A stretch of 64,000 nucleotides of DNA from NCBI GenBank assembly GCA_050084985.1, contig JBITNC010000002.1, positions 3,224,001-3,288,000 on the forward strand. Reading direction: 5' to 3'. Each line of letters begins with the position of its first letter. Position 1 is the first letter of the stretch. The notes under the pieces are model-generated. The model saw nothing but the letters and a program-made list of their open reading frames with translations, did no database searches and was not told the origin of the DNA. Made by a program: the position numbers and the translations under genes. Below are positions 31,871 to 64,000 of this stretch, piece after piece. The stretch is from Nageia nagi (lineage: Eukaryota > Plantae > Pinophyta).

Positions 31871-31887
31871 GTGGGGCCCCTTTTATA
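31871..31887 (-). promoter_or_regulatory. TATA box (TATAAAA) with adjacent GGGCCCCAC TCP-like site for the antisense PMD gene
   Basis: Minus strand CTATAAAAGGGGCCCCAC, about 150 nt upstream of the ATG at 31734. Confidence 0.6.
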
Positions 31888-32184
31888 GAAATATTAGGGG
31901 CACACACTTTAAGATAGTTTCAATTTGGGCATTCAGTGTGCATGGGCAGGTAACCAGGTATCAATTTGGAATCCAAGGGCGATTCATCGTGGCCTGATCT
32001 TCACGGTTTTCGATGAATCCTCAAGAAAAGGACCACCTACGATCTCAGTTTAAGACCACCTGTGTTCTAAATCTTACGGAAAGGACCGCCTGCGTTCCTT
32101 TTTCCAGTCAATCAGCTCATCCAAGTATCACAGGTACATCACAGGTGCTTGATCAATGTTATATCCAGGATAATATTGCTTTGA

Positions 32185-32720
32185 ATCAGCTTATCATGCC
32201 TCTTGGTGGAGTTTCAGCTCCCATTTATCAGCTTATCATGCCTCTTGGTGAATTTTTAGCTCCCATTTATCAGCTTATCATGCCTCTTGGCAGAGTTTTA
32301 GCTCCGATTTATCAGCTTATCATGCCTCTTGGCGGAGTTTCAGCTCCCATTTGTCTTGCGGAGTTCGGTTCTTATGCAACTGCAGCATACCTCTTGGTGT
32401 GAAGTTTCAGCTTCCATTGCAGTTGTGTGGAACTTAGCTCTCCCCTATGTGTGGTCATGTGTATGGTCATGGTTATCATGTCTTGTCTTGTGATGTGGTC
32501 TTGTCGAGTTGTTGTCATGCCTCTTGGCGCAGTTTCAGCTCCCATATATCTTGCGGAGTTCGATTCTTATGCAACTGCAGCATACCTCTTGGTGCGAAGT
32601 CTCAGCTTCCATTACAGTTGTGTGGAACTTAGCTCTCCCCTATGTGTGGTCATGTGTGGTCATGTGTGTTGTCATGGTTATCATGTCTCGTCTTGTGATG
32701 TGGTCTTGTCAAGTTGTCGT
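32185..32720. repeat. Tandem repeats in the 3' region of the element: 4 x 42 bp (32185-32352) merging into 2 x about 196 bp
   Basis: Unit ATCAGCTTATCATGCCTCTTGGYGGAGTTTCAGCTCCCATTT; long unit repeated at about 32320 and 32516. Confidence 0.92.
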
Positions 32721-35700
32721 CAGGTCATCATGTGTGGTTAGGTCGTCTGTCAGGTCATCGTCATGTGTATGTGTGTTGTCGGGTTTTGTTGTCATGAGTC
32801 ATCAGTGTTGCGGCAAGGTTATCAGACTATCAGATATATCAGGCTATCACCTTCTATGGCATTCGTATATCAGAAAAAAGATGCAAGAGGCAAGCATGCC
32901 CAAGGTAATATCAAAGGGAGTTTTCTCAACCCATATCTAGTATTAACAAGCTTTGTCATGATTTTTGCTTGAATTTGGAATGGTTAGTGTTTATCATTGC
33001 TTGTCAATTTTTTTGCTATGATATTGTGTTTTTACTTTGAATGCAAAATCTCAATTCACCTCATGTTGCTTTCGATTTCACATCCAAAGTGGGGCATCTG
33101 TTAACACATAAAAATGAATTTATGTTTTTAAATCAATAAATTAATGAAAACATGCTTGGTCTAAATATATGTCTTGAATGTCTTAATGTGATAATATCAA
33201 TGTTTATCTTGAATGTGAATTTTATAATGATTATCTTGAATATTGCATGGATTATCTTGAATATTGCATGAATTATCTTGTTTATTGGTGTGGTTATCTT
33301 GAATGTTGTGAATTAGCCTTGTTTATGTAGATGCATGCCGACCCATGGGTTGTATTATCTATTATCTATATAAATAAGGGATCTAATAGTAAGTCCACAT
33401 ATCAAGGATATACACGATCCCGCATATGGTCTTGTAGTGGCAACCCCTTAAGGTATCTCTTGGTACCGCCTACAAGGCTGTGGTTTGTGTACTTCCTTTC
33501 GTGAGCTATCCTGACATCTACAATCTATTCTGATATCACACTGCTATCTGACACATTCGTATTGAAGTTCTGGACTTGATTGAGAGGTCAAAAATCATCA
33601 AACGAAGGTCATCGGCGCTCCTTTATGAACCAAGAACACCGTCGATGCTCTATTATCTCTGAAACGGACCACCCGCGGTCCTCTTTTTGCATCTTCACAG
33701 GTCACTACATTTTTGGAGGGGCAGTTCATCATCAGTACATCGCCAACATCTTCATCTTTCGTTGTCAGGTACGTTCCGTGAGGTAAGTATACAAATTACA
33801 GTCTTGTTTGGTACAATTACATTTCTGAATCGATTATCTTGTTCATTGCTATTGAGAATAAATTGCTATCCGTAGCTCAAATATAGATATATTGGGTTTG
33901 TAGATATTTACCTGTTTATTTATTTGCACGCTCAATTTTATTTGTAAACACTAAGCATGTTGCGAACTGATCTAGGGCATCAAATAGGTCACGGTACATG
34001 CCAAAAATTCCAAAGATGCACTATTTAAGCAAAATATCACCTCTACAAGCCAACGTCACATCCAGGAACACATTAATCAAACACAACACCTCAATAATAG
34101 TCTAGAAATGCCAACGACTCACTTATACAAGCATGATTACACTAAATTGCTCAACGTTGCATATATGAAAGCATGAACAAGTTAGACACATCAAATAATG
34201 AGATAATAAATGAGATCCAAGTATGCCATGACTCAATTGATGATAGAATGATGAGTACAATATAAACCAGGCTCAAGAGGGCTCAACATTGGCCTCCAAG
34301 GAGCCACCTTTTGTATACAACTATGTAGAGATAGATTTTGTTGTCAAAATTGTTGTAGAACAATCACACTCTACTAGATCCATGGATTCCACACTGAAAG
34401 GCTTCCTCATAGGCTAACTCTCAACAAAGAGAACAAATGTAATTTTGGAATGCCACCAAATGGGTTCAAAGGTGTATACATGTTGTGGACCCCTTAGGGT
34501 AGGGAAACCTCATAGCATTATCACCTCAACCACTAGTCAGAAGGTGTTCCAAGCCTCCTAGACTCTCCTTGTGCACTACACTCAAGGGTACTTAACACCG
34601 CCAAGTCTTGAATAGTAAGAGGGGTTTCAATATCGAAATAAATTCCATCTTTGCAACGAGACTCCTTTGCCTTTATAACATTTCTATGGATTTGGATCTC
34701 ACCTAGGAGTCATCCCCAACCTCCCCAATCACAACGTTAGCTCTTGGAGGCCCAAGATATCCAACGTGGGTGCTTAGGGATCAAGCATGCCCAACATGGG
34801 TACCAAGAGGCCATAAATGCCAACATGGGAGTCCAAGGTACCATGCATTCCAACATGGGAGTTCAAGGAACCACGTAGGTATAGGAGCCATGCATGGGTG
34901 CTAGGGTGTCATCATGGGCCAACGTGGGGGTCTAGAAGCCTCCCCAAAGTTGGTGCAAGTGCTCAAGCCCATCGCTGGGTTCTAGGTGTCCATTATGTTA
35001 TTTTTGATGTTACATGAGGCTTGGGATTCCCACAATCATCTTAGGATCTCTAATTGCATTAATGATAAATTAAAAAACACATTCTAGCTTGGGAGGAAAA
35101 TGTCCCTCGTGGGGCTCACAATATGGGTCCAATGGCCATTATATTTCTATCCCAAGTAACTAACAACAAATACATGAATAAATAAAAATATTTACAAAAG
35201 GGAATCCTTAGGATTTCAAATTTATTTATTTTTCAGAAAAAGGGGATCTTACACTATATGATGTTAGAATGACATTACTTAATAGTATTAGCTTTCCATT
35301 TCCCTCTCATGTTGCATTTTTAGCTTAAAGCATAGGGAATACTCTCTCAACTTCTCATTTTTTTATTTCATTCTTTAGAGGGATCTATCACGAGAGCAAA
35401 GAAGAAGCACAAAGATGTTCCATTGCATCAAGGTTTGCTATTTATGTTTTATAAACATACACTCATCCAGGAACCCACTCTAGATACTACCCAATTAGAC
35501 CTTGAGCCCACCCCACATTGGTATACCTTTAAGTTAGATGAATACCTTAAGGATCATATCCTACTTGCCAAGCATATGAAAAAAGGTAAAGGTAAGAGCA
35601 CAACTAAGAGCAACTAAGTGTTAAGCACAAAAATAAACAAGTCTTTCAATCAACCGATGTCCTCGTCCACTACACTTGTAGATGATCCATTATCCTCAAC

Positions 35701-40900: not shown

Positions 40901-43900
40901 TTTTGTTGTATTTTTTGATGATATTTTGATTTTTAGTAGGCCATGGCTAGAGCATTTGACACATGTCAAGATTCTTTTGGAGCTTATTTGTTAGCATAAG
41001 CAGTCAAAGATGAAGTCATCATTTGAACAACAATCAGCTAAGGACTTCTGTTCCTCACAATGGAGTTGGGATCCAGGTAGATCCAGATAAAGTTGGAGCC
41101 CTCGAAGACTACCACAACTTAGCACCATTCTTCAATGAAAGAGTTTTCTTGTATGTATGGGCTTGTAAAAGAAGTAAATTTTCATATTAACGATTCCCTT
41201 CATTAACTTACCAACAGAAAGGCTCTTACTTGGCCTCAAGCTGATCATATTTTCCAATGCCTCAAAGATGGTTTATGCTTATCATTTGTTCTTTCATTTC
41301 CTGATTTCCAATAGCCATATGGAATTGAACCTAACAATTTGCTATAGGCACAGTTCTTAAGCATTGAGGACATCTAATGGCCTGTCAGGCTAAAAATTAT
41401 CCTAAGCGAAGCTTAAATACAACACTGGTGGCAAAATATTCTTTGTATTGATCTAAATACTTAAGCAACTAAGTCACTTTCTCCTTGGGAAAGAAGTAAG
41501 CTTGCACATAGATCACCAATCCCTTGAGTTCATGAATTCTCAATAAAAACTTCAAAAACATTGACACATCAAGTGAGCATTTTTTAGTCAACAATTTCAT
41601 CCGGTCATCAAGTGGAAGGAGGGTTCCTCAAACAATGTAGTAGATCTCTTGCAACCTCCTCTAAGCTTTTTTACCGTTTTAAACAGTCATTGTGCAGCTC
41701 AAGAAGACTGCAAAGATCTATACTCCTTTGATCCATGTTATGAATCTATAGTTGCAGCATAGAACCAACTGGCAATGGTTAAATAGGCTCTTTTCTTGAT
41801 CACTATTTTGAAGAAGCCTTTTTATATCACACTAATCGGTTGTGTTTCAGTGGGATGAATCTGCAACAGTCTACTAAGAGGAACCTGTTGGGGGTTTTTC
41901 TTTCCTACCTTGCTGATGGTCAAATGCATGCAAGGCTTGTGGGAAAACTCCGACACCTGAGTTGTAGGGCGTTACCCCTACCCGCTATGAGGACTTTACC
42001 TCAAAGGTTTGGAAATGGAGGGTACAAGGGTTCACTCAGGCGAAAGGGTGGAGATGTTTAAAGCTGTAGCCAACACAAAATATAATTTTGTTAATCAAGG
42101 ACTTGAAGGTTTTCCAATCCAAGTACAACCGTTTCTAAAAAAAAAAAGGGAAAATAAAACAAAGAATCTGTTGCGAAAGCCGTGCAAAGAAAACGAAAAA
42201 GAAAGAAAAGATGTGAAAAGACAGTGATATATGAGTTGGGCTCTCAAGCTAAGTTTTCACCGATTAATACGATTTTGTGAATAGAACTTGTGCGAGTTTG
42301 ATTTAAGTTCCACGCACCCCGATTCTGGCTCGAAAGGCGATGACACGAACGTTTTGACGAGAGGAGCTTGGTGCTAAGGCAATGAAAGAAAGGTGAGGCA
42401 TGGGTAAGACTCAATCCTGGGGTGAAGTTCTTATGCTAAATGACATACACAAGTCATCTTACAAACAAATTAATCCTGAGTGCAAACTATGAAACATCAC
42501 AATGAAACATTTCTTGAACTATTTCCAAAAGATATGCAAGCATTCTTTTATCCACCCATTAGGTTTATAAAATGATCCAAATATTCAAGATAGCATTCAC
42601 ATGTAATACTCATTCACATTCATAGTCTCAAATGAAAACCAACTCACTTCAATTACTTGAGATAAATCACAATTGCGAAAAGGGAAAACTCGTAAGTTTT
42701 AGAGTATTATTTTAAGTAGTCCCAGTTGCAAAAAATGTTTGATCTTTACAAATGAGCCCAAATGGGCTATATATAGTTTTTGAGCAACCCAAAGTGTTGC
42801 CCTAACCCTAATTATGATTTCCAAGAAAATCAAATATGGTCCAACAAAAACATGCCACATGGCATCATAAGATATCCTCCAAGTTTGTGGGAGCAAATTC
42901 TCATCCATCACAAAATTGGGAATTTATTAACAATAAATTAAAGTCTCCAAAAATAACCATGAAATAAATAGTAAATAAAAGACAACAAATGTTGTGACTA
43001 GGCAGTTGGTGGGTCCAACGCCTCCACACGTCTCTCAAAGTCATCATCCAAGAATGTGGCCGTGAGCTCCAATCCATGTAACATTTTTGACAGCTTCGGC
43101 CCATTCTTCATCACACTGCGCTCTACCTTGTTGATGATCCTTATCATGTCCTCCCATGCGTGGGCTTTGAGCAAATGCTCCAAGTGACTACCTGTTTGGA
43201 AAGTATTAATATCCTCGATCATGATGAGACTGTGAAGGAAATGTCTCACTTCCGCCACTACAAGTTCTTGTTAGAATTTGTAATGAAATATTGTGAATAT
43301 CTAAACTCCTTGTAAATTCAATTAATCACTTAAAGGATATGTAGATACCTTAAGGGATTAATTGAATTCTTTATTATGTGTGGACTTTGACCTAACCATG
43401 GGGTTAGTTGGTAGGTTGAAGTTAGATCACACATTTATTGTAACCCTAACCTTACCCTTGGGTTAAAGGGAGGTTAGGGAGGTACTCTAAAACTATAAAT
43501 AGAGGGCCTCTCCTCTTGTAATTCACATCTTAGATTTGGAGTAACATTACTCTACTAGTTTAGGAGAGAGGAAGAAAGAATTGTTGTAAGAGAGGCATAG
43601 TTGAGAATAGAGAGCTAGTTGTGGATGTACTCCCAAGGAGGGAGGAACCACATTACATTGTGTCATATTGTGTGAATGGTGTTAGTAGCTTATTAGATGT
43701 TGAATGATGAATGATTTAGCTTCCTAGTCTTAGGTCCTTGAGAATTAGATCTAGGCTAATTCCAACAGTTCTTTGTCACGGATGCCTGCATCGTCATCAA
43801 TGAACTTCACCTGAAACTCCATCTAATCAAGAAAAGTGTTTGCCTTGTCATTGAGCTTTTGAAACTCCTTTTGCATCTCCTGGAATAGGGTGGTTATGTG

Positions 43901-46900
43901 GTTAACTACCCCCAATTAGAACCAATATACCTCACAAAACTTTATATCTTCTAGTCTCCGATTTCGTATCATCTCGAACTGCATGATCATGGGCCGCCTA
44001 GAATCCAGGATCCGAAGGAAACTAGTTCTCTCCATGATGACGTCCTTGAGCTTTTTTTTTCGAATGCTATCCTCTCTAGTGCTTCAATGGATTGTTGCAC
44101 TGCCACCAAGACCTCATCTATATGCTTATTCTTTACTGCAATCATACCCTCCTTTAGCGGTTTGATCTTTTGGTGCTCTTTAGTGGGTACCTTAGCTGAT
44201 TCCAATTCCTTGGTCAATATCCTTTGTGTGGCTAGCTCCTTCTTGAGGCCTTCGATCTCCTTATCTTTCATCATACCATCTTTGGTGATGGCCTCAACGT
44301 TGGAGATGATTGCATGTTTCTGACCAGCCAGACCAATCGGACCTGTATTGATGATTTGGTTAATTTGTTGGAGGTCTTCGGGACATTGTGGATTCTCCTT
44401 ATCAGCTATAATGGTCTTGATGTGTATAGCGTTCTTAGCTAAATGCACATATGTCTGGGTTTTCCCTGGACGGGTGGACCTTTCTTCAACCTAGTTGTTT
44501 TTCTCTTCCGCCCTAAATTCTCCTTCGACATCCATATTAAACACATCTAAACATTCTTCCATATTGACACACCTGTCATTCGTGGGTGATGGCTGATAAG
44601 TGTCCACAATTGCCTTTGGAATAGTAACAACGTTCTTCTTTACTCTTCTTGAGGGTCTCTCTTCTCCTTGCTCAGCATGCTCACTTGAGGCTCTTGTAGC
44701 TTGTGATTGTGGGGTTCTCTTTAATCGGGTCCTCTTTTGCACTGTCTTGGATATTGGCTCCTTGTGCTTCTCAATAGATGGCTTTGTCGCTGATGCCTTA
44801 TGGGTTTCTGCCAATATCTCTACAGATTCATCTTGTTTCTGTGCATCTGGCATTTCCTCATCTTGGGTTGCATTCTCTTTTTGTTCTTCTTCTGATGCTC
44901 CAATCTCCCCTTCCTCTTGATTTTCATCAGGCTTATATGAGGGGTTGGAGGGTGATGATCCGGATGGTGGAACAACTGGTGACCTCCCGATTGTCGTGTT
45001 CCTAGGTGGTCTTGGAGATGGAGAAGGATCTTTGTGTCTGTTTCTCACGCATCTCACCACCTTGTTTGTAGATACTCGCTCTAGTTCCCTTGCATCATGC
45101 TCATCCATGGTGGCTTGCACTTGTTGCACAACTTGTTTGATTGGCCTTTAGCCTCGCATGGGCACATATTGTCCAACTGGTGTTTCAACAACTAGAGGGA
45201 ACTGTGTGACTCTGGAAGTAGACTCCTGAGGTTTTCTTCGCTTGTGCTGCGAGAGTCTTTTACTGATAGTAGCTTCAACACGATGTTGCTAGTCATTTGC
45301 ATCCTTGTGTACCCTTTCCCTTATCTTCTTCATCTCTATCTCATTGTTGATATTCTAGAAAGGCTCCTCGTCTACGAGTGACTTATGCTTATAAGGTTTC
45401 TTCCTTTCCTTCATGAAGAATGAGTGCATTCTATGATCCAGATCATAATGGTTGGCAATAGGCATCTTCTTGAAATTGAATTTGGCCAACTCTTCTTTCA
45501 TGGTTTCCACATCCGTACAAAACTTGCACTGATATTCTCCTACAGCAATCGGCAAATTGGAGGTAGCCGATTTCTTCTGCCATACCTGCTTGTTTAGAAA
45601 GGCCAACTGCCTCATCATCTCCATTAATAGCATCCTGTTACTCACGAATCTTGGCAATTATTAGGGCTGGATGGCTGATTCGTGTATACGAATGTACGAA
45701 TAGTGTTGGTGATGGAAGAAGAGGTCCCCATGTTTCTTCAAAGCATCTTGGGCTGAATTGGAGATCCTAGCAACTGTGATCTCTCCCTTAAGTTCTTTGT
45801 ATATTTCATACTCCCATCCATCATTTATCATTACAAAACTATCCCATCTCCTTTCCAACTTCCATTTGGGGTAGCATTTCCAAATGGAATATGTCCTTTT
45901 TTCTATCCAAGCCGTCTCACCCTGAGCTGTATCTCTATACTTGTCATGAAGCAACATGTACATGAGGTATGAATTGAGGTAGAATTTACGAGTGGTACCC
46001 AAGGATGACAATTGATTAGCTATGGAGTTGCTTAACACGTTGCTCCATTTAATTCTCCTCCCTTTGGTGATCTCTAGGATGAACCCAACGAACTCTTTCC
46101 TAAACTTTGAGGCGTCTTCCTTCCCAAGGATTCTAGACAACAAGAGAATAATCAACTCCATTGCAGAATAGAAGTTGGAGTGAGGAGCATTGATAAGTGC
46201 ATTTCCCTTCAATCCGTGATGCTCCTCCAACATCCAACTCTTGACAACGACGGCTGCTTTGGGGTCTCTTGGTAACAAGCTAATGATCTAGCCTCGCTAT
46301 ACTCGACTTCTCCTTCAGCAGTCCACTGAAATGCTGTTTTGATGGCATCCGGGCTGAAATCCATTATGATGTCTCCTTTGATACCTCGAAGGACTCTCTC
46401 CCCTTTTTGCCAAGAGTGGCCAACCTCCATGCATAATTCAGGAAATGGAGCTGTGAATGGGACTAATGTACAAGTGGAGAGTCCGGAGAAGAAGACGATA
46501 TCTTTCTCCAAGTCAGTGATAGGAAGACCATGAGTGCCTTCTCTCATCTGCGTAGGATCAACATTTTGCCAATCTGCATCTTCGATGGTTGCAAAACCGT
46601 TTCTCAAGAGTTTAGCCCTTGGGGAAGGGCTTGTTGTCTCTCACGAATGGAGATGACACAATCCTGTTTCAATTGCTCGAGATCCCTATCGAAGTCTGAA
46701 GCTGAATTACCCTTAGAAGTCATGATGTTTTTACTAGCAGCGAGGCTCCTCAAGAGTGCTGTGTGGGTTTCCAGGTAAAGATGACATCCAAATTGGAGGT
46801 TCTTGCCTTCCAAATGCTTGCGCAAGCCCTAAGGTGGATAAATGATGATGTTTGAGCACACAAATTTGCAATTTGTTGTTGTCCTAGTGCAAAAGTAGAA

Positions 46901-49900
46901 GAGGAGCAAGTTTTGAGTTTGAGAAAATGAGGTCGTGAAGCTTGTATTTATAGCCCATTTGGCTTCCAGCTTGCCCTAGTCTACTAGGGTTACTAACATA
47001 ACTCATCATAGCCCTCCACCTGGCCGACCTTGAGATGTGTGCCGACCCAAAAACTCGTACCAAGCTGCCTGTGCCCGAACGTTTGGGTTTTAATATTCAA
47101 CTTGGCTTGGCGCATGGGAAAAAAAGACAAAAAAGTGACTTTTTGAACCATGCGCCAACCTTGGGAGCTTGTATGCTTCCAACGTTGGGTATCTTGCCTT
47201 CATGTTTGCTTGCCTTGATCGCCTAACTCACCCAGTAACCTGATTTTTCCTGATTCCTGGTCTTTTAGTCGGCTGGACTTGTCAATTTTGGCGTTTCATA
47301 ACTTGTGGACTTGACTCATGGTTCAAAAAGTCAAGTTTGTGACTTTTTGAGGTATGTGCCAGCCTTGCCTCTCCATCTAGCCTGGTCGCATCGTTCAAAA
47401 AGACAAGTTTTTGTCTTTTTGAAGCATGCGCCAGCCTCCAATTGGCCTATTTTTCCAAATTTGATTTTCAAGTGCTCATGCTTTAGCCAAATTTTCATGT
47501 TTCTTGAATCTTGGAGGCTCCATGGGCTTGGCACATGTCTCAAAAAGTCAAGATTTTGTCTTTTGAGACCATGTGCCAGCCCCTCTGGGTATACTTGAAT
47601 TAGTTTTGAGTTTCGGGGTTCGGGACTTGTCAAATTTTCACCTTTGCTCAAACTGGCAACCTTCCTAGGCTTGGTGCATGGTCCAAAAAAGTAAGATTTT
47701 GTCTTTTTGAAGCATGCGCCAGCCTCCTGGGTGGTTCATGATCATTTTCCAACTCTCATACTTGCTCAACTTGTCTTCTTGACCAAATCGCATGGTTCAA
47801 AAAGACAAGATTTTGTCTTTTCAAACCATGCGCCAACCTTGTAGTGCCTTTGACTTAGATTTTTCATGTTCACTTTTGCTCCACTCTACTCCCCGTGTTT
47901 GGCGCATGCCCAGGAAAGACAAGATTTTGTCTCTTGGAGGCATGCGTTGGGCTTGCAAGTGCCCAAATTCCATCCTTGAGCTTTTCCTTCATGAAGAATG
48001 ACCCCCAAGCCCAATCGCATGGTTCAAGAAGACAAGTTTTTGTCTTTTCAAACCATACGCCAGCCCTTGGAGAGGCCCAGTTCGCTTTGATCGGGCTATG
48101 ACTCTTCCTAGACTCCCTAGTTCACCTAAGATCGACTTTTACCCTTCTCAAACTTAGCCCCTTTTAAAGATTTTGGAAATCCTATCTTGACATGACTAAC
48201 CCTAGACGAAGGAAGAGGCTTGAACTATAAGTTGTCCATGAATCTGGGTCTTTGAGACGCAACTTGGGTGGAATTGATGATGACAAAACAAAGTATATAC
48301 ATTGACGCATTGAGGGTCCCCAAAATTGCAGGATTTTGGGGAATGTTGTGTTTCAGTCACAACAGAACCCATTCACCATTTCTTCTTGCATCTTTGTTTG
48401 GTGTGCTATTTCTTTGAAATGGGTATCTCATTCTTTGCCTCTAAAAACGAGATTTGTTTTTTAAGCTTTTTTGGAGTCACTTTGGTTTGCAATTATTATC
48501 ATCTCTGATTGTGAATTCCTCTATTCTTGATTAATATTTTACAATCTATATGGAATTTACCTATATGTCACTTATATTTCTCCACAACCTATCTTTTGCA
48601 AATTCACCCTGACTGAGATTATCAGTTACACCTTAATCCATGCTCGGCATTTATCATCAGTAAAACAAATATTGGAATGATTATCTACACATTCTAAACC
48701 ACAGTAATAATTGTTAAAGTATGCTATTCATGATTTGGTCTGTAATCATAGCCACCTAAAATGAATTGGAACAATAAATTCACAATTACAACAAATTGCT
48801 GAAATACTCTTTAAACAAGTTTGCTTTTGTAAGAAAAATAGAACCATAAATTCTGACTTTATTCAAATTTACACTCAATTAGTGTGGCCTTGTTTGTTTT
48901 GTTACAAAAGTGGGAAGCAATCATAAGAAAATGCATGAGAGGGGGCACTCCTTAGTTAATCATTCAGTTAGAATGCAAAACTAATCATGAACTGAGCTCT
49001 AGCTTGTCGTGGACTGAACTGATCTACAAACCAGAAGTGAGACTAACTAAAAATGCTCCTATACATGGTCATGCATGGTCTTCTTTGGAATTAACACAAC
49101 TCCTAAAACATGCTGACGGTCCTTAGGTGACTAAGAATTCAGCTGAACTGAGAATGAAGTACATGTGAACTGTTCACAACTAAACGAGAACTGAAATTAC
49201 AAAGTTAGCTTATTAGGTGCCAACTAAGTCAGCTGGATCTCTCATTAAGTGGCACATGATAGGAGAATTCAGACTCTGATCCAACTTGGTGTCCACAACG
49301 TGTTCCCAAGCACATTTTCTTGCCACAGCTTGCTGTGCTGGAGCAACACAAGGCAGCTTTTGAACTGTCTATGATTGAAGGCTGTTGCTGTTGGTCTTTA
49401 AGTCATAGATGCCATTAATCAGTCAGAAAAATCCAATTCCTTTAGGTGGAATTGCATTGATGACAAGCTTTCATGTAAAATTCAGAAAGTCAGATTCTTT
49501 TGAAATCAGAAAGAAACATAACTTCTAGTATAATACTTTCGTGAATATGGTTACATCTCTTGTAAGAATCTGAGTAAATTTTATTATTGCAGTGAATGGG
49601 ACAAGCCACCATCTGACATGCTACCTCCAGGCTCAGTATCAGTGAAGGTACATTTTAACATATTTTTTCTTATGGAGTTAAAATGATTGTTTAGTTTTCT
49701 CTGATCATTTGAAATTCTTTACAAAAAAACATATTAGTCATTTGTGTGCAATTGAACTAAAATTTTATCTTCACTGTCGACATAGGATTATGCAGTACAA
49801 ACTCCATTGCTGCAGCAAACATTACCAGCAGGTCAAAGAATAAGTTATGTGCAATTTGACATCAATGATACTGATTCTATTGCAACAATTCAATTTGTTT

Positions 49901-50152: not shown

Positions 50153-51532
50153 GCCAGATTTTAGCTTTCTATCATATTGCAAATGTTAATTTAGTTTGCT
50201 AAGTTTCCATGAATGTTTCAGAAAAAAAATTATTAGTGCTGGAAGAAGAATATACATCAAATTAAAAAAAAAAGGTTAGAAGGAATTTTGAATTCTGCAA
50301 AGGCATGAACGATGTTTTCAGATCAATCACCCATGCCTAGCTTAGAAGAACCGGTGGGGATGAAGGAAGTTAGGTCAGAAGAGCTTGGTTGTCTTCATAA
50401 GTGGCTCATGGAGAATGTTTCAGGTCAGCATGTACCTCTCATGGAAGTTCCTCAGCAGAGGGAAAGTGGTGTGTCATTGGTCTGTCAGGGAAATAGGGGT
50501 CATCATGTCCAGTTCACTTAGAGTTAAAGATCTGTAGGAGAGTCGCTGAACTTGAAAAGTCAAGTAGCAAGAGGTAATGCATATGACCCCCTCAAAAGTG
50601 CCTGTGGATCTAGGGGGTGTGCTAAAGGATTCAACTAAATAAGTCTCTACTCAAGATGTCCCAGATTCGAGAGAGAAGAATTTGGGTTGGGTGGATCATG
50701 TGAAGGGTAGTAAGTCTCCAATAGCAGAAGGAAGGGAGATTAAAATTTTCATCTCTACGAAACAAATGAAGAAGGGATTGTTCTATGAATTTTATAAGAT
50801 TCTAGACAGGGCCTAGAGCATAATGGGTAATAGTTTGATTGGAGAATTCACTAGTGCTGGACCATCCATAGATCAGATTAAGAAATGGGCAAGCTACAAT
50901 TGGAGAATCAAGGGACATATGTAGTTCTCAGCTCTCTCTAGAGGCTTTTCTTACAGTCTAAAAATATAAAGGTAGCTTCTATTTGGGTAAAACTTATGTT
51001 GTGCCTGCATAACACACAGGCAATGAGGTGCATTGCTTTGAGATTGGCTTTTGGTAATGGATAGTTCATTTTGAAGAGTGCAAACATGATATCAGGGAGC
51101 GATTCAAGGAGATCTTGCGACGAAGATCCTAAAGAGTATCAGAGTATTCCGTCACCAATTTTGCAGCCAAGGAGCCAGGATTTGAGAGACAACATCAAAG
51201 CACGAACTTTTGGGTCTAGAGTGCAGACAATGCACATCGGGTAGGTTTTGCAAAGTTTGAGCTCACAAATGTCAAGTATGACAAAAAGGCGTGTTTTTGC
51301 AGGATTTGAGCACAAAGGTGCCTAGGTGAAAAAAGACGAGCGTTTTTGTCAAGTTGGAGTCCGAGTACAGTGAATATGGCTAAGATGACAAAAATAAGTG
51401 TTTTTGTCAATTTTGACCCTGGAAAGCCGGAAAGAGCAAATGTGATAGAAAATATGCATTTTTGTCAATTTTGAGCTCGGAAGTGGTCATTAAGGCAAGA
51501 ATGTGCATTTTTGCATAGCTTGGACCCAGAAA

Positions 51533-51660
51533 GCTCGAAAATGGTCAAAAATGCAAAGTTGAGCCCAAAATGCTCGAAAATGGTCAAAAATACAAAGTTG
51601 AGCCCAGAATGCTCGGAAATGGTCAAAAATGCAAAGTTGAGCCTAGAATGCTCGGAAATG
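51533..51660. repeat. 39-bp tandem repeat (about 3.3 well-conserved copies, degenerate copies nearby)
   Basis: GCTCGRAAATGGTCAAAAATRCAAAGTTGAGCCYARAAT. Confidence 0.9.
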
Positions 51661-51999
51661 CTTGGAAAGTGCAGTTTTGGCAGGGAATGCACATAAATGT
51701 TCGGTTTTGATCAGAAATGGTCGGAAATGTAGAGTTTGAGCTCTAAAGTGCCAAAAATGCCGAAAATTATTGTTTTTCAGAGATTGAGCTCGGTGTTGAC
51801 CATAAATTTCGGAAATGACCATTCTTCAAAGTTTAAGCTCGGAAATGGTGGATAGCGGTCCGAAATGCACAAGTTGTGTCCAAGAGCATAGTTTGAGGAT
51901 TTTGGTGATATCAAAGCTCGGGTTTTGACACATAGCTCCCAGGAATGGCAAAATATGAAAATTTTTCAAGAGACAAATGCAAATGTTATCGAAAATCAA

Positions 52000-53800
52000 G
52001 TCTAAGAGCATCCTTGGAGAGATAAGGTTATTTCTAACACAATTAGGACTTGAAATTTTTGATTTTGACCAAGTTTTGAGCCCTCCAAGCCTGGGCATAG
52101 TTTTTCAAGCCAATGGAAATCCATTGAGGTGTATTTTGGCGCCTAGCTACCAAAGGGAAAATGAAATTTGTCTCGAAAATCAAGGGAGATGGTTTGATTG
52201 CATGTAAAATCCCATTCTAAGGCACTTTAGGTCTACAAATTTTTGATTTTGACCAATGGAGGTGCCCTAAAATCCTAGGCGCAAGTTTCCAAGTGATTGG
52301 AAATCCATAGACTTGCATTTTGGCGCCTAACTTGAAGGAGAGAAATAGATTTTGACCAAAAGACCAAACCAAAGGCACAAATTGATGGAAAAAGGGGTTT
52401 CAAGCACATTTAGGTCTTCAATTTTCCAAATTTGAGCAAGTTTTCAGGCTCAAAAAGCTAGGCGCATGTTTTCAGATGTATGGAAATCCAATGGAGTGAT
52501 TTTTGGCTCCTAACTTGGAGAGATAATTGCAAAACTCAACGAAAATAAATCCTAAGGTGCTTATTGGGTCAAAAATGGCATTTCTAGCACATTTAAACTT
52601 GCAAATTTTCAATTTTGAGCAAGTTTGATGGCTCAAATTCCTAGCCACAGTTTCCCATATTTTTCTAAATCCAATGGAGTGATTTTTGGCGCTTAACTTG
52701 GAGAGATAAGTGCCAAACTCAACAAAAATAAATCCTAAGGTGCTCATTGGGTCAAAAATGGCATTTCTAGCACATTTAAACTTGCAAATTTTCAATTTTG
52801 AGCAAGTTTTATGGCTCAAATTCCTAGGCATAGTTTCCCATATTTTTCCAAATGCAATGGAGTGACAAATGGCGTCTAAAATGAAAATTTGAGAAATTTT
52901 CATCAAAAATCAAGTTTGGGGTGTCCATTAGTTGAAATTGAGCATTTTGAACACATTTGGGTCTTGGAAAAATCAATTTTGAGCACTTCTAAGCACCCTA
53001 AAGGCTAGGCGCAGGTTTTCAAGGCTATGAAAATCCAAAAAAATGAAAAATGGTGCCTAGGATAAAACAATTTCACAAATTTTGGTCAAAACACAAGTTT
53101 GATGGGTCAATTGGGTGCAAAATGTGATTTTGAGCACATATAAACTTGCAAATTTTAAATTTTGAGCAAGTTTGATGGCCCAAATTTCCTAGGTGCAGGT
53201 TTGGGGCTGATTAAAGATCCATAGGACTGAATTTTGGCACCTAGGTTGGAAAACATTGATAGATTTCACTCAAAAATGAAGTTTGACCCCTTCATTGCAT
53301 AGAAAAAGGCATTTCTAGCACATTTAACACTTGGAATTTTTGATTTTGAGCCATGGAAACCCCTCAAAAAGGAAGGCGCAGATTTTCATGCCATTGGGAA
53401 TCCATAGACCTGAAAATTGGTGGCTAACATGGAAGAATGTGAAGATTTTGCTTAAAACTCAAGTTTTTTGACATATTTGTATGGAAAATGCCATTTTGAA
53501 CACATTTAATACTTCAAATTTTCAATTTTGCACAACTTAAAGGCACCAAAAAGCTAGGCGCAGTTTTGCATGTGTATGGAATTCCAATGAGGTGAAAACT
53601 AGCGCCTAACTTGAGGAGGATTGACAAATTTTGCTCAAAATTCGAAAATTTTGCCTTCATTGCATATAAAATGACATTTTAAGCAACTTTAAACTTTGAA
53701 ATTTTTGAATTTGAGCAAGGTAAAGGGCTCAAAAATCTAGGAGGCATTTTTCATCCCTATGGAAATTTCACTTTTTTCTATCAAATGAAATCCATAGACA
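52000..53800. repeat. About 183-bp tandem array (about 10 diverged units) inside the solo LTR
   Basis: AAATCCA-type anchor recurs at about 52117, 52301, 52484, 52667, 52850, 53032, 53215, 53399, 53580, 53762. Confidence 0.85.
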
Positions 53801-55799
53801 TGAAAATGGAAAAAATTGCCAAAATCTCAAATCCTTCATAAAACCTCCTAAAAAGTTCACAAACCTCTCAAAATTTGCCAAGTACCTTGTAATTCCATCC
53901 TTCATCCATCCATAAACTCAAATCCACTTTTTAATTTTTTTTTTCTAAATTTTAGACCTCCACTATTTTTTTCAAAAAATAGACCAAAAAATCCACTTTT
54001 TTGAAAAACTCTCTTAGAATCCTTTGAAAATTTGCCACAATGATCACACCATGGGCAAATCGAGATTCAAAGAAGGAAGGAGCTCAAAAGACTGTTAGAA
54101 GGATCTAAAATGAGGATTTGAAGCTCCAATTTTTGACAAATTGATGCAAAATGCCTCGAAATGCATGCTAGAGGGCATCAATTTTTGTAAATATTTTATT
54201 TGTAGCATATTTTAATGGGATGAGATTGTTCTCCCACTAAAACGATATTGTAATCTCAATTTAGCATTCAAATTAACATTTTAAAGCTTTTTTATGGATT
54301 AGGGCAACACCATCAAATTTTGACCTAAAAAGTCTATAAATAGACCATAGGGGGTCACATTTTGAGGTAGAATGTTGTAGTCCAAATTTTTTGTAATTGG
54401 GGAGCAAATTGATGTACTCATGCAAAACTCTTTTACAAACATAATACAAATGGCTACAAGTTGATTCAAAATGTGTTTTCATCTATGCTAGTGGTGGATT
54501 GATTTTTTAGAACGTTTTCTATAATTGAAACATTTTCGTGCCTTCTCTTTGAAAACTCACGAGTTTTAGGAGAATTTGTTGCAAAGTTTTCAAAAATATT
54601 TGAATTGTTGCTAATTCATCACTTGCTTGTTAAATGCTTAGTATTCTGAATTGACTTTCTCTTAAGACATCTTCCTAGATCTTTTGTTCAAAACTATCCA
54701 CCTTCACTCATGCTTAGTCCACTTGGTTGCATTGGCCTTGTTCATAGAGTATCGATAATTAGTTCCACTTCTCGTTCATCTTTGGAATGATTGGAAAATA
54801 GTCATTCATTTCAAAGACTTGATTGAATTGAACAAGATTTCTTACCTGATCCGAGAGAGAGAATGTTTAAACAATGCTGCATTGTGATTACCTCTTTGAA
54901 GTCTAGCCAGTATTTGGCCTCATTCTTGCTTTTTCTTTTCTTTATTTTACACTTTCTTTAAAACTTATGGCAAATTTCGAACTATTGTAATATAACACAC
55001 CTCAATCCTTACAAAAAACGTGAGTTGACAGTTATTACCTCTACTACACCACTCAGCTGATTCCCAAACAAGACCTACAAATTTAAAGCTCATATTAACA
55101 ACACGAGTTTTCCGATAGAAACCTTGGGGTATCAGTCCTTACAAGAGGAGTTCAGTAACGCGTTCTCACCCACATGCTGGGTTGCTTTCCCGTCTTGATC
55201 GTATGGGCGATCATCGAGTAAGAGGAAAGGTTTCCTTCCCAACAACTTCATGCACTACCTTTGGAGTTTTGGGCAAATAAAATCTTTGAAACTATGGGCA
55301 ACAATATAGGAATTTTTCTTTCGCTGGATTATGCTACTAAGGAGAGGAAGAATATGTTCTTCGCTAGGTTGTGTTCGATTGGACACGATTCTCTTCTTGG
55401 AAAAATGGTTTGAAAATAACTTAACATTTAATTTTGAAACCGTTGCCAAGAATAGGTTTTGATTACAACCCTCTACTTTTTTGGTGCAGTTTGCAGGATA
55501 AATAGTTTTATTTGCCTTTCAGATTTGAATTTATGTGGTTGCACCACTCAAGTATATTTAAAGAAATGGAAAAATGGTGGAGTTTATCAACCCAAGGAAC
55601 TAAAATACAAATCCTATCTAACAATTTAAAAACAATAAAGAAAGAATTTGAGAAATGGAACATGGTTGTCTTTGGTAACATCTTTCAGAAGAAGAATTCT
55701 ATTTGGTTGGAATTGGATAAAATAGAGGAAGAAGTCAGTAAGATAGGTATGAATCAAAGTCAATATATGAAAAAAGGAGCTAAATGCCAAATTACATAC

Positions 55800-57618: not shown

Positions 57619-59550
57619 TGTTGGAAACCTAATCCTTAGGGATTAAGGTTGAATGTAAATAATTAGATTTAGGTGTTATAAGTGTATGTGTGAGAAAATA
57701 TTTTATATATATGTATTTTTGGATTTGTGTTTTGGAGGAATTCCAAAGGTCATAGTAAGATGAAGTTGTAGAGTCTTTAGGCAGTTAAAGAGTCTCTTGA
57801 GGAAGGTGAAGTGATAAGCCACTTTTTCCTCTATCTATGAATGTTGTATTGATGTAATACATGAATTTTGGAGTTAATAGAATTTGGATTTGCAAACCTA
57901 AGAGTGGGCCTTATAGTGGTATTAGAGCTTGGCTGTGCCTAACAAAGGACTAACAACCTTTGCTAGACCATGCTAAGATCTTACATGGGGAATTTATTGG
58001 TTCTCCATGTGAGTTTTTCTTGCAAATTTGAGTAGACTCCAATTTTTCATTTTTGTGCATAACTTTTAATATGTTTATCTGTTTTCCATTTTGTGAAAAG
58101 TTCTTGATACCCATTTCCATTAAATTTGTAGTGTTAAGTTTTTAGGAGCTTCCACATTTTGTATCTTCTGCTGTTCATGGGGTTTTTCTCTTCCTTCTTC
58201 ATGGGTGAAACTACTATTATTCTTCCTACTATATGGCTTTTTTGGTGGTGAATGTTGGGTTGTTTTATGGCTAGTGTTCTGATAGCAATGCCATCTCAAC
58301 CCAAGTTGCAAATTTGCCTCTTTTTCATGCACTAGAGTGGTTGTTTCGTGCCAGATTGTGAAGAAGCACAAGAAAAATTTGTGTTGTTGGAGGTGGAAGA
58401 TATTTGTGATAACTATATTTGTTTGTTTGATTGTACGTTCCTAAAATATTTCCTTGCTGGTGGCTGGTTTATAAATCCGTTTTTGGTACATGTTGTGGAG
58501 GCCAATGCCAAAGTATTGCAGCTCGTTCTTGTGAACTTCGTGATGGTGGATGTGAAGCGACTATGTGACTTGCGTATAGATTTTTGGTGTTTTGCTTGTT
58601 CATGGTCGTCATTTCGTATTCCACATCCTTTCTGACCATTGACCGTGCGGATCGTTTGGATCTTGTGGAGAGTGGAGACTTGTGTACATTTCTTGTTTGG
58701 AGCCCCAACTACCCCACCATTTAGCTATGTACCTAATGGGCAACGTGAATACTGGTTTACGTGTCATCCCCACCGTGACCAGTTCGTGCCAACTCATTGT
58801 CCACATTGATCAATTTGGGCGCCCTAAATTTTATCGCCAGCCACTTTAATTTTTGAATAATTTGGTATTTTTTATAATATTTAAATATTATGGTTTTAAT
58901 ATTTAAATTTTATTATATTTAAATATTTAAAACTATTAATATTTAAATTATTACTTTTATGCCAAATTATTAAATATTTAAATTTTTTTTGGAGGACATC
59001 ATTTCTATTGCCTTTATCAAGGTGTCCATTTTAATGATGTCCTTTGTAAAAAGATTTATGTTGCAATATTTTCACCCCTTTGGATTAAGGGGGAAACTTG
59101 GGCTTAATCCTTGAGGTGGACCTTTTGAAGGGATTGCTTATTTTTTTTGTTGGGGAAAAATGTTCTACACACCTTGAGACACATCTTTATATTTATTTTT
59201 TAATCCCTTTTGGACTAAGGGGGGCTGTTGGAAACCTAATTCTTAGGGATTAAGGTTGAATGTAAATAATTAGATTTAGGTGTTATAAGTGTGTAGGTGT
59301 GAGAAAGTATTTTATATATATGTATTTTCGGATTTGTGTGTTGTTGGAATTCCAAAGGTCATAGTAAGATGAAGTTGTAGAGTCTGATAGTAAGATGAAG
59401 TTGTAGAGTCTTTAGGCAGTTAAAGAGTCTCTTGAGGAAGGTGAGGTGATAAGCCACTTTTTCCTTTATTTATGAATGTTGTATTGATGTAATACATGAA
59501 TTTTGGAGTCAATAGAATTTGGATTTGCAAACCTGAGAGTGGGCCTTACA
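57619..59550 (+). mobile_element. Non-coding TRIM/LARD-like LTR element (LTRs 57619-57915, 59226-59550), TSD CTTGT
   Basis: LTR pair TGTTGGAAACC..GGGCCTTA(C/T)A; iMet-type PBS TGGTATTAGAGC 57917-57928; PPT AAGGGGGG; the 1.3-kb interior has no retroelement ORF. Confidence 0.93.
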
Positions 59551-59749: not shown

Positions 59750-61316
59750 AATGCTCTTTAAGACCTGGTTTGTTTCAATCTTCTTCTCAGGTGCAATCAC
59801 AAGGTTTGGAAGATAATTTGTAAGATTGGGGAGCACTGACTTGTATTTATAGTTTTTTTTTTTGGCAAGAGTAAATTGGCTATTGGGAGTGAGGTCGGCC
59901 CAATTGGATGTGCTTAAAATTTTGAAAATGGTTCAAAGGGGTCTAGGTGCAAGTGAAAGACCTGTTGGAATTTCAAGGCCCTAAAAGGATGTGCCCTTGA
60001 ACCAGGCTTCTCAAATTTTGAATTCGATGCAATTTGGCCAAATATCATGCTTATCACACCTTGAATTGGGTACAAATGGGCCAAGCTCACCTAAAATTTA
60101 TCTTGGAATTGCAATATTTTGAAATGATGCGCCCTTGGACCAAACATCCTATTTCTTGGATTAGATGCAATATGAGGGGTTAGAGAAATTATGCGTTAAT
60201 GAATCGCTTGTCAATTACTTCTTGCAAACTCAAGAGCCTCATTTGGTGTGCCCAGGATATGCGATGTTTGAAGTGCAAATGAAGCGTTTTAGGCCAACAT
60301 TTAAAGTTGAACTTTGGGATATCTATCACCCTCCATTATTTATCAATTTGATTCAATAGGATTAATTCTCAAGCTTGAAAGGAGTGCCCTCAAGCTAGGA
60401 AAACCTCCAATTAGCCTTGAAATTTCAAGATCTTGAAATGGGGCACCCAATTTATCCTTGGAGAATGTTATGCAAATGAGACTTGTACCAATATTTATAG
60501 TTTTTGCTGTGATAGGTGTCAATTCATTATTTACCAAAATTTGGTCAAATGCATGCATTTAAAACTTTGGATGTGATGCAAGAAAGCTAGGTGCATCTCT
60601 TCTCAATCTTAGGATTTCAAGCACTTCAAATAATGTGCTCCTGAGTTGGACATCCCAATATTGGAGTTAAGTGCAACACAAGATCTTGTAAAATGATGTG
60701 CAAATGGGCCACTTGATCTTGTATTTAAAGCTTTTCCTAGGACATGTTCACTTTCCCATTGGTTAAGGAATAAGTTAGATTGTTATTGCTTCATGTTTTG
60801 AATTTGGTGCAATAAGCTATGCACACCTTTGGCTTGTCTTGAAATTTCAAGACCGTGACTCATTTTAGACATGTCTTGCATTTTCAAGAACTCAAATAGG
60901 TGCACCCCAACATCTTGATGCGTTTAAGACCCTCAAACAATGTGAAAATGATGGAAACTCAGATTTTTGAGGGAATCTTGATCCAAACCTTGGTATTTTC
61001 CATTTTTTGAATCTCCACCTCCTCGAAATGTCGAAATTCATCGCCTTCGGTTTCTCGAAACTTGTCTTCTTGTTGCCTTAGTCAAAATTGGGTTGTCAAA
61101 ATTTGCAAAACTTGGGGCGTGTTGTGCGGGTACAAGTCCTAAGTTGGCTTTCTATGTTGAGAGCATTTTCTACAAATTGTTAATGGTCTCATCATCATGG
61201 CCACCTACCTTCAACACCATTAGTCTCATGGCCTGAGGATCCCCCTCTAACAACTACGAGTTTGCTGACATCAACTCCAAGTCGAGACAAACTACCATAT
61301 TCCTAAGCCAGATAGG
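59750..61316. mobile_element. Fragment of another long-LTR-type repetitive region
   Basis: Degenerate sub-repeats resembling those in 50997-55244; boundaries unclear. Confidence 0.45.
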
Positions 61317-64000
61317 TGTTGGTATGTTTTTCTTTCCTCGCCCAAAACATGCACAAGACTTGGAGGAAGCAACGTTACTTGTTTTCGCCTGAAAGGACTA
61401 GTTACCCCTAGCGATCACATGGAATATGGTCTAGGGCACAGTGGTCAGAGATGCATGTTGTTAATCGTATACAAGGGAAATACACCGTCGGGATTCGTTT
61501 TCCACAAAAGAGGAAAGACTGCAAATGTGAACGAAAGCAAAGAAAGATCACAAATGCAAGGATAAATGCATAGGAATGTGAATAATGAACTTATGAAGAT
61601 ATCACCAATGATGCAGTGTCTCAGCATGTCATCTCCAGATTCATTAAAAAAATGTTTCACTTATCAAGTCGGGCAATAAATAGCAAAAAGTTCAAGTTAC
61701 TACCGGACAAGACGAGAGCAAGAAGCTGTAGGGTCTTGATGGAAGACTGGATGGAATAGGATGAAGGGAAATGACCAACATGTGAATACATAATCTAACC
61801 GAATGACATAGAGATTAGCTATATGCCCTAGAATACATTCACTTATGTGCAAACCATGCAATGAATAATTTAAACCACTTCGAAAGATATTCAATCAGCT
61901 TTTCTTAAAACTCGTAGTTTGCAAAGAATATGAACTTAAGCAATAAAAATCATTCAAACTAGCAAGAGAATCTTACAGGGTAGGATGCATGTCCCACAAA
62001 TGATAATCTTCACAGCATTTGCTTTACAGAACCATTCCAGAAAGAAATCAACTTTCAATGATATTCAATAATGTAAACAAAAGCATTCCTTTCTTGATTG
62101 CAGTACTCTCAGTATGATATTTAAAATGAAAAAGAGATATGACAATATGCATCCATGATATGCAAAGAATCCCTTATGTAGCAAATCCTTATGCAATTCA
62201 ATAGTATGCAGAAAATATCATACATACAATCATATGCCAAAAATCCCCTTCTAAATAGCTCGAATCGAGTATAAATACGCCACTAGAAGTGTTGCCCTAA
62301 AGGCATCAAATCTGATATGGTGTGCACACATACAACACACATACTGATCCAAAATATGATTGTTCACACAAAATGATGCAAGTGGTATTTAAAGCTGACA
62401 AAATATAAATGCCACAACTATAATACATTTATTTATCTCTAACCTATGCAAAAGAAAATCAAATATGCAATAAATGTTTGGATTCTGAACCGACAGGAGC
62501 AAAAACCTCATCCCTGCACCGGTTAGAACCATTAATAAGTTTGACAGATTTGATTTGGTGGGAGCAAAACTTCATCCCTACACCAGTCAAATCAAGTAAA
62601 TAAAGTCTGAGTACAACACCAACCACCATCAATATGCATTAATTAAAGAAAGATTATTGCAAACAAAATCTGCAAGTGGATCAGATCTAGGCCAAATCTG
62701 ACCCGGTACCGGCGGAGTTCCACTCCTTGTTGGTGAGACCGTACGACTCAATGGTTTCTTCCAAGAACGCTATGGTCTTATGTACTCTGGAAACCATGCT
62801 GCCGTTTTGCTAGAAATAGTCCCCAATCTATTTGGACGTAGCCTACATTTGGAATATCTAGATGACCATCTGCCTTTCATGGATGATAGGATGCCTTAAC
62901 TTTAACAAATTGAAATCTTCGACATCTAGATGCTCTTGGATCAGGTTTTGGGCCTCTGCCAATACTGCTTTCTTGCGCACACTGTTATCCTCCCTTGAAA
63001 TCTGAGTTGGTATACATATCCTCTCATTTGCTCCTCTACTTTTCTCAAAGTGTTCTGACTTTCAGAACAACATTGCACTTCTCGAGTGCATGCTTCAGCC
63101 AGTCGTGCTGATACATAAACTCATGGCAGTAGACCAATTTTTCGGGTTTGTTAGCAGAGATTTGCTATAAATGGGTGACATTTGGGGAGATAACCATCCA
63201 ACTTCTCAAGGTTTGCCGTTATCTAGGACTTTAGTTCCTAGATTCCAACACCTTCCTCAAAGAGGCTATATATTTGAGAAGATAACTTCTCAATGGTCTC
63301 CATCATCTCCTTCAGTTGGTCCTTCATCAGCTCCCATCCTTCATAAAACGAGGCTTGTTTCTTCAGGTTGACAAGGGTAGTGCTAGTGGTCTAGAACTCC
63401 TTAATAATTTTCCTGCTAGCCGTGAGTTCCCTTTTTAGCCTCTTCACATCCTTCTTAGCTTCGTAGCGTTCCTGTTCCATAACAACGACATTTTGGGTCA
63501 CAATGTGCTTACGGGCTGTCAGTCCCAACTTGATGGGCACATTAAATTTCTCAATCATGTAGTCGTTGGGCCTCTGAGGATGTTTCTCCTTGGAGTAACA
63601 ATGATTGATGGAGATCTCTTTTCGAGTAGTAGAAACAAAAGTGTCAACAAATCTAACCTACTCACCATCGGAAAGGTCCTCTTCTTCATCCTCAGATCTC
63701 AAGTCCTGATCTATTTCTTCATCATGAGCCATACTCATGCCCAGGGCTCTTAGGCAAGCATTTAAGTCAAGATTCGGATGTTCGGTTGTTGGCTTAGGAG
63801 GGAGCCTCTGCACCAACACTCGTCCTTTGTTGATCTTCTTGACTTCTTTGGTAGGAGTGGTTGAACGAGGGCAATTTCCCTACCCTGGTGCTTGTCCTGC
63901 TTTCTCTTCTTTTGTTTTTCTGTCTCCTCTTCATCTTCTTCATCTCCGCCACTGCCACTAATAGATATGCCTTTCTTTCTTGGCTGAGGGGATCTTTAAT
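61317..64000 (-). mobile_element. Second gene-containing giant LTR, truncated by the window end
   Basis: Starts TGTTGGTATGTTTTTCTTTCCT, like TGTTGGGGGTTTTTCTTTCCT at 41886; no PBS follows on the minus strand; contains a homolog of the 42998-46723 ORF. Confidence 0.75.
62690..64000 (-). pseudogene. C-terminal part of an LTR-embedded ORF homologous to 42998-46723
   Basis: EKHPQRPND..GLTARKHIVTQNV..KRLKRELTASRKIIKE aligns with KENPQCPED..GLAGQKHAIISNV..EGLKKELATQRILTKE; VRKKAVLAEA..VEDFN aligns with IRDKELVVAEV..IEDIN. Confidence 0.78.

Follow-up and report, generated by a model that had tools for sequence, protein, structure and literature searches.

A gene of probable VANC-like fold inside a high-copy unit of Nageia nagi that is likely a giant long terminal repeat

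The last 2.7 kb of a 64,000-nt stretch of Nageia nagi DNA (the whole of the sequence analysed, hereafter the window, to which all positions refer) belong to a repeat element, copy 2 (61317..64000), whose minus-strand reading frame recalls a gene lying within another element of the window, copy 1 (41886-48364). This arrangement raises the question of whether a plant retrotransposon can carry a large gene inside its long terminal repeat (LTR) and, if so, what the encoded protein would do. The preliminary description of the locus had regarded copy 2 as a second, divergent LTR with the same embedded gene. Our analysis suggests, at about even chances, that the unit of some 6 kb is a giant LTR and that its gene encodes a DNA-binding anti-silencing factor with the fold of VANC, a protein of Arabidopsis VANDAL transposons.

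The first step is the boundary of copy 2, which comprises the following features:

61312..61316, plus strand: candidate 5-bp target duplication ATAGG, one copy of which lies in the window
61317..64000, probably minus strand: copy 2, the terminal 2.7 kb of a high-copy element, truncated by the window end
61317..61362, minus strand: conserved terminal signature ..AGGAAAG..CCAACA, common to the termini at 41886 and 55244

Position 61317 is the true terminus of a high-copy repeat. Copy 2 opens there with TGTTGG..TTTTTCTTTCCT, as does the element at 41886, and the gapped pattern common to both places occurs at exactly two positions of the window and in none of 100 shuffles, which bears out the shared terminal signature first reported. 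Contigs of public runs were aligned to the window at 80% likeness; parts of it are present in runs of several organisms (shares of 0.05-0.13 among the nine of 11 rows listed). With depth taken as summed contig depth, a crude measure, all four of four runs rose from 9-91 (bin 61121-61227) to 3,000-24,000 (bin 61335-61441), a jump of about 100-fold at 61317. In three of the four, 17, 83 and 87 contigs continued leftwards past this point with a consensus agreement of 0.38-0.43, which indicates many unlike flanks and no common continuation. In addition, a 1.3-kb metagenome contig (L001), 80.5% identical to copy 2 over 1,136 columns, begins at the point equivalent to 61317 and has a flank different from that of copy 2. 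The depth jump, the unlike flanks and L001 together show that a high-copy mobile family truly ends at 61317 and borders host DNA there. Projection from the alignment of the copy 1 and copy 2 proteins places the far end of copy 2 at about 67,500.

Both ends of such a unit are seen in copy 1:

41886..48364, minus strand: complete copy 1 unit, 6,479 nt (5,975 nt minus the nested insertion), with ends TGTTG..CAACA and duplication GAACC
42998..46723, minus strand: embedded gene of copy 1, about 1,070 codons net, interrupted by stops, frameshifts and a nested LTR
43269..43767, plus strand: unrelated 499-nt solo LTR inserted within the gene of copy 1, target duplication GTTCT

The whole of copy 1 with its gene is a single TG..CA insertion, flanked by a target duplication of exactly 5 bp (GAACC on both sides). 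The perfect inverted ends extend over 5 bp and no more, and no terminal direct repeats were found in the unit. The empty site exists in another organism, in which a contig of run X5 joins 41758-41880 straight to 48365-48798, and run X1 covers every one of the 28 bins that overlap the unit while leaving the two bins outside it uncovered. Runs X5 and X9, which are more distant, reach their greatest depth within the gene at the folded domain described below and have zero depth at the low-complexity linker. Run X4, RNA by our guess, spans copy 1 from end to end in a DNA-like manner and is uninformative on expression. The nested solo LTR is present in very high copy, and a purine tract stands directly before it in one contig. 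Immediately behind the copy 1 stop codon lies a CAACA-AA-TGTTG palindrome (~42982-42998), whose right half equals the far copy 1 terminus over 10 bp in inverted orientation. We considered this palindrome as an internal boundary and rejected it, as no loose end was found there among 24 of 3,664 rows listed and copy 2 is without it.

The second step is whether copy 2 holds the same gene. The relevant features are:

62687..63999, minus strand: decayed C-terminal half of the embedded gene, with a charged linker, a conserved block, a coiled-coil-like stretch and a C-terminal block
62496..62590, plus strand: two copies in copy 2 of the motif GGAGCAAA..TCATCC, single in copy 1 (42890)

Frame 63999-62690 of copy 2 was read with X for every stop, frameshift and insertion. 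Against the C-terminal half of copy 1 it gave a Smith-Waterman score of 156, compared with 42.6 ± 6.1 for shuffles, none of 1000 being as good; the outcome was again 0/1000 when residues were shuffled in windows of 10 or 20, and the reversed control scored 39. The two reconstructed frames thus align significantly at the protein level, as had been proposed, with 93 of 350 aligned pairs identical (27%) and with non-coiled blocks included in the match. The more specific proposal that both the coiled-coil and the C-terminal blocks align stands for the alignment as a whole; the last C-terminal block on its own matches weakly (score 37, equalled by 25 of 1000 shuffles). The raw DNA of the two copies gave no significant match (best E 0.015 with blastn, 0.42 with tblastx), in line with the high divergence noted earlier. 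Nucleotide identity at codon positions 1, 2 and 3 is 43, 59 and 30%, the first two values being partly built in by the protein-guided alignment, and four-fold sites of identical residues are saturated (8 of 34 matching). Since third positions are saturated, the likeness between the copies persists at the protein level alone, and for the same reason dN/dS between them is not computable. The stop codon lies 1,371 nt from the terminus in copy 2 and 1,113 nt in copy 1, close to the first estimates of 1.4 and 1.1 kb, and the doubled GGAGCAAA..TCATCC motif accounts for part of the longer distance. Judging from its reading frame, the copy 2 gene is dead, with 10 stops in 323 codons and a frameshift near 63030-63060; the other minus frames of the region hold 21 and 23 stops, and one plus frame likewise holds 10. 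Several observations on the family relation of copy 2 weigh against the preferred reading of the locus. None of 169 fetched family relatives was matched by blastp with the copy 2 C-terminal half, the intact member P0105 matches copy 2 weakly (5 of 300 shuffles as good) and copy 1 less well still (28 of 300), and the N-terminal domain of copy 2, which would lie beyond the window end, is expected through copy 1.

The gene family itself is large, plant, unnamed and conserved, as judged by sequence comparison. A 200-residue piece of copy 1 used as query retrieved 15 relatives at 63-78% identity among 21 candidates, and no homologues of a copy 1 piece were found among longer proteins. Nineteen aligned close relatives (median identity 69%) contain two one-residue internal gaps in 3,569 residues, one further gap being an N-terminal alignment artefact; these are called open reading frames (ORFs), so that broken copies are left out, yet conservation of the in-frame length is clear. 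A family profile found 178 representatives (clusters at 50% identity, E <= 0.001) among 1.84 billion entries, and in copy 1 it matched the following region:

45115..46622, minus strand: N-terminal folded domain of the copy 1 gene, family profile match with E 9e-111 and 2e-33

An intact member of 1,010 aa has a folded N-terminal half, a charged linker, a coiled-coil-like region and a C-terminal block. Among 19 clusters looked up, the only informative name was a Cryptomeria gene model with an absorbed family piece; this mannosyltransferase model (P0128 / P0170) starts with the piece, by exonisation or as an annotation artefact. The nearest Atlas clusters are Streptophyta, and the host of the family is likely a conifer. 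PDB sequence searches gave no match, and in Pfam the domain of the family fell below the cut-off of every family. The rarity of in-frame gaps together with the saturated third positions points to protein-level constraint, so that the earlier view of the gene as an old family feature kept by selection is supported by these alignments, the constraint acting on the family and not on the decayed copy 2.

What, then, would the protein be? An AlphaFold2 model was obtained for the relative P0032 from 135 fetched sequences (pLDDT 88, pTM 0.83). A structural aligner run against 48,161 chains ranked VANC21 first (Z 8.1, root-mean-square deviation 4.4, 232 aligned residues, 5% identity), with the next chain at Z 2.4, and in a second structural comparison, with 86 Foldseek chains, VANC21 alone exceeded Z 2 (Z 7.8). 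The distance to the next row, together with the concordance of the two routes, makes the fold link likely, despite a borderline absolute Z, and we regard a VANC-like fold of the N-terminal domain of the family as well supported by the model. In the predicted layout, a charged linker and then a coiled-coil-like region come after a VANC21/DUF1985/PMD fold. In addition, for P0105 the first Atlas cluster that bears a name is DUF1985 (score 0.85, below the bar of the tool), which we take as a lead only; Atlas with P0006 returned no usable match, and the viral fold library nothing at E <= 0.001. The idea of VANC had been raised in the literature search before the fold results were known. The case has several weak points. 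The modelled P0032 is about 25% identical to the close homologues of copy 1 and is not the protein of the window itself; an earlier model from a shallow alignment was poor (pLDDT 46) and unusable; and the VANC21 match spans model residues 29-302 only. The aligner warns that a Z of 8.1 at 5% identity can reflect a common arrangement, and Foldseek found nothing significant, DNA-bound VANC21 having a TM-score of 0.23/0.29 (E 3.1), which is about twice that of the other rows listed. Pfam DUF1985 (PF09331) and PMD (PF10536) were unmatched and, for 135 members, absent from the best 25 of 36 families, whereas true PMD pieces elsewhere in the window did match Pfam PMD.

If the gene lies in an LTR and has a VANC-like fold, an anti-silencing role is somewhat favoured. 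VANC binds short motifs that have accumulated as tandem repeats in its own elements and causes methylation loss (PMC5735166). PMD and DUF1985 have a common fold, and VANC21 is predicted to dimerise through a coiled coil (bioRxiv 2024.09.27.615353, 2024.04.02.587720). In this regard, copy 1 carries candidate targets:

47106..48066, no strand assigned: eight dispersed imperfect palindromes of about 56 nt, just upstream of the copy 1 gene, candidate binding sites

The strongest rival keeps the giant LTR and the VANC/PMD fold and gives the protein another job, for instance activation of the LTR promoter in trans or guidance of integration, with which the anatomy and the fold evidence are equally compatible. 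Host PMD proteins act in several directions (PMC5418596), so that a shared fold shows no function, which counts against an anti-silencing reading; some silence transposons and oppose Polycomb (PMC5418596, bioRxiv 2024.09.27.615353), and the extra ORFs of Retand and Grande have been proposed as general regulators (PMC7264820, PMC11963269). However, the sole solved structure matched shows an anti-silencing protein in complex with its target DNA, and the palindromic repeats adjoin the copy 1 gene as VANC targets do in VANDAL elements. We therefore consider another job possible, and distinctly less probable than anti-silencing.

An anti-silencing gene of this kind would lie inside an LTR only if the unit is one, and it is highly probable that it does. 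Copy 1 has the anatomy of a solo LTR of about 6.0 kb, as read from its TG..CA ends, 5-bp inverted repeat, 5-bp target duplication and empty site, which is not proof. A motif scan and a Pfam scan of nine frame pieces gave no sign within the unit of a primer-binding site (PBS), a polypurine tract (PPT), gag or pol. LTRs of 5-6.5 kb are known, in the upper range, for Ogre-type elements (PMC6317226, PMC6431247), and a unit of 5,975 nt with eight palindromic repeats resembles the very long, repeat-rich LTRs of the Ogre/Tat (OTA) group, an Ogre/Tat-like retrotransposon being the best reading of the parent. For copy 2, the earlier description as a second divergent LTR holds as to its terminus and its gene homology, while its LTR status comes from the termini and target duplication of copy 1. 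Against these readings, viral-contig, prokaryote-genome and one metagenome scans yielded no full-length parent and no PBS, PPT or gag-pol junction, so that LTR status and lineage are reached indirectly. The viral-contig and prokaryote-genome scans gave no relative, four loci of one viral scan being chance matches, and the sole relative in the metagenome scan was L001.

A promoter-like block common to three elements of the window bears on the same question and on orientation:

62270..62300, minus strand: exact 12-mer TTAGGGCAACAC followed by a TATA-like box in copy 2, 983 nt from the terminus, likely the LTR promoter
42768..42805, minus strand: 12-mer plus TATATATA in copy 1, 919 nt from the terminus
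50997..55244, plus strand: third relative, 4,248 nt, with the same two ends, the 12-mer and tandem repeats, and no gene
46945..46952, minus strand: TATAAATA, likely the promoter of the copy 1 gene itself, some 220 nt before its start codon

The 12-mer TTAGGGCAACAC occurs three times in the 64 kb, each time followed by a TATA-like box, and lies 919 (copy 1), 983 (copy 2) and 945 nt (third relative) from the AGGAAAG..CCAACA end. The ends of the third relative are homologous to those of copy 1 (0 of 100 shuffles, z 4.7-6.6; reverse-complement controls z 0.7 and 2.1), and its target duplication matches at four of five positions (ACTTA/ACTTC). It bears a canonical TATAAATA directed at the CCAACA end. 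In all three elements, T makes up 35-38% of the final 0.9 kb on the CCAACA-end strand. Its TATA direction and the T-rich last 0.9 kb suggest that the LTR reads on the minus strand, that the CCAACA end is R-U5 and that the gene would lie in U3 in sense. Several features of these elements count against this picture. The TATA box reads as a palindrome in copy 1, and in copy 2 and L001 its canonical form stands on the opposite strand; with its strand differing among copies the orientation is not settled. The tandem repeats of the third relative (51525-53766) are of another unit, and no trace of the embedded gene was found at 50997-55244, which indicates that not every member requires the gene in cis. 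Nor was a remnant of the promoter of the gene detected there (59 of 200 shuffles as good).

The anatomy could also be that of a whole non-autonomous, one-gene element of 6 kb mobilised in trans by an integrase-type enzyme. Stand-alone units are all that was seen (copy 1, the third relative and the many unlike flanks at 61317), and the loose ends hold no PBS-like consensus. We nevertheless find this unlikely: TG..CA ends, a 5-bp duplication and a 5-bp inverted repeat typify LTRs, a promoter-like block whose distance from one end is fixed suits a U3-R-U5 order, LTRs of such length are known (PMC6431247, PMC6317226), and a junction with an internal region would amount to few contigs among 80, invisible in a majority consensus.

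Less probable again is a short LTR (<1.4 kb) in copy 2, with the gene as an ordinary internal extra ORF behind a decayed boundary. LTR-adjacent extra ORFs are common in Ogre, Tat and Athila (PMC7264820, PMC6317226), depth is maximal in the first 350 nt of copy 2, and the palindrome described above stands right behind the copy 1 stop. However, the motif scan of the interval from 61317 to the copy 2 stop revealed nothing PBS-like or PPT-like, so that the boundary which would have spoken against the earlier description did not appear. No second heterogeneous, low-agreement loose end was seen among the rows listed for either copy (for copy 2, weak evidence from 24 of 2,175 rows), and the copy 1 gene lies between one pair of ends that are not direct repeats, with one target duplication and an empty site. 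Finally, an env-like membrane protein, which a sense-strand, 3'-side position in the parent would suit by analogy with the env-like ORFs of Athila and SIRE (PMC7264820), is largely refuted and very improbable, as no transmembrane-grade segment occurs in six of six sequences, the intact 1,010-aa member included (best 19-residue hydropathy 0.82-1.51), and the fold match is to a nuclear DNA-binding protein.

For the preferred reading, a VANC-like anti-silencing gene in a giant LTR, a mechanism can be proposed. In U3 the gene would have a TATA box of its own and would precede the LTR promoter, which is situated about 0.95 kb from the end; the transcript of the gene would terminate at the polyadenylation site of the LTR. 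It would be duplicated with each LTR and survive recombination to a solo LTR. By analogy with VANC, the protein, perhaps as a dimer, may bind the family-specific palindromic repeats in U3 and keep the chromatin of the element open, so that the element would escape host silencing; solo LTRs could go on supplying protein until they decay. A bolder version, which we offer tentatively and think rather doubtful, is that a widespread retrotransposon lineage of conifers moved a sequence-specific, VANC-type anti-silencing gene together with its palindromic targets into the LTR, which would make each solo LTR that remains after removal by the main route of the host a self-contained anti-silencing cassette able to serve the family in trans.

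The window also contains other elements and genes:

26922-33950: young LTR element with 852-bp LTRs 97.5% identical and flanks ending/starting CTAAG; a gag piece on the plus strand, a PMD (PF10536) gene on the minus strand, and no pol frame of at least 100 aa seen
20965-21402, minus strand: decayed PMD fragment, Pfam E 1e-6, below cut-off
57619-59548: short LTR-bounded element with a PBS-like and a PPT-like motif
8487-12917: LTR-bounded element with decayed gag-pol frames
14038-17394, minus strand: spliced host gene, presumably a family-3 glycoside hydrolase from how its translation reads

The elements at 57619-59548 and 8487-12917 have terminal repeats of about 300 bp that are 86-88% identical.

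Compared with known systems, the embedded gene would be a VANC/PMD-like accessory gene, yet it falls outside both families by sequence and does not lie on a VANDAL element. It resembles VANC (DUF1985, Arabidopsis VANDAL Mutator-like transposons; PDB 9lnk/9lnj) in its predicted fold (Z 8.1 over 232 residues), in being transposon-encoded, in the short-motif repeats of the non-coding parts of its element and in its coiled coil. Unlike VANC, it is hosted by an element with TG..CA ends and a 5-bp duplication, not of Mutator type and with no transposase match, it combines 5% sequence identity with no DUF1985 Pfam match, and its DNA binding and demethylation are predicted. The target duplication of VANDAL elements is about 9 bp.

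The gene also recalls the PMD (PF10536) extra ORFs of Ogre and other Ty3/Gypsy elements (PMD-A), as an accessory gene of an LTR retrotransposon with a PMD/DUF1985-group fold, and Ogre elements in the very long LTR and repeat arrays; unlike those ORFs it has no PF10536 match, and the described ones lie between the LTRs whereas that of copy 1 is inside the terminal unit. A profile comparison of the family with two PMD pieces of the window gave a probability of 0.5%, with a collinear match. Among the extra ORFs of Ogre elements, PMD is the domain that occurs most often (PMC6317226), and the extra ORFs of Ogre, Retand and Athila, many of them PMD, are located 5' or 3' of gag-pol in the internal region (PMC6317226, PMC7264820, PMC11963269, PMC3485330). 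Likewise, the antisense ORFs of Retand and Grande (TRP28, SMC-like coiled coils) and ORF0 of Retrosat2 resemble the gene as conserved accessory genes with their own promoter, a coiled coil and nearby tandem repeats; all of these differ in being internal, and the embedded gene has no TRP28 match. Retand LTRs measure 315-1,194 bp (PMC11963269).

Our literature search, with subscription journals mostly outside it, found no report of a gene within a plant LTR and no VANC-fold protein of a conifer retrotransposon, and the available parts of PMC13468544 and PMC11539532 contain nothing on a gene of the embedded type.

Genes encoded in LTRs are familiar from retroviruses, as in sag of mouse mammary tumour virus (MMTV) and the accessory genes of foamy viruses and human immunodeficiency virus (HIV) that reach into U3, where a U3-borne gene is copied with each LTR; these involve unrelated proteins, much shorter LTRs and infectious animal viruses.

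Plant LTR retrotransposons commonly carry extra genes, most of them unexplained. The family described here, unannotated and comprising at least 178 sequence clusters, was missed by Pfam and by standard repeat classifiers, and its protein and candidate target repeats are now named and testable. A gene of 1,000 residues inside an LTR would be present in two copies per element and would outlive the LTR-LTR recombination that normally disarms it. If it is VANC-like, it would be the retrotransposon counterpart of the best-studied plant anti-silencing system, situated in the giant genomes for which the persistence of retrotransposons is the question to be answered.

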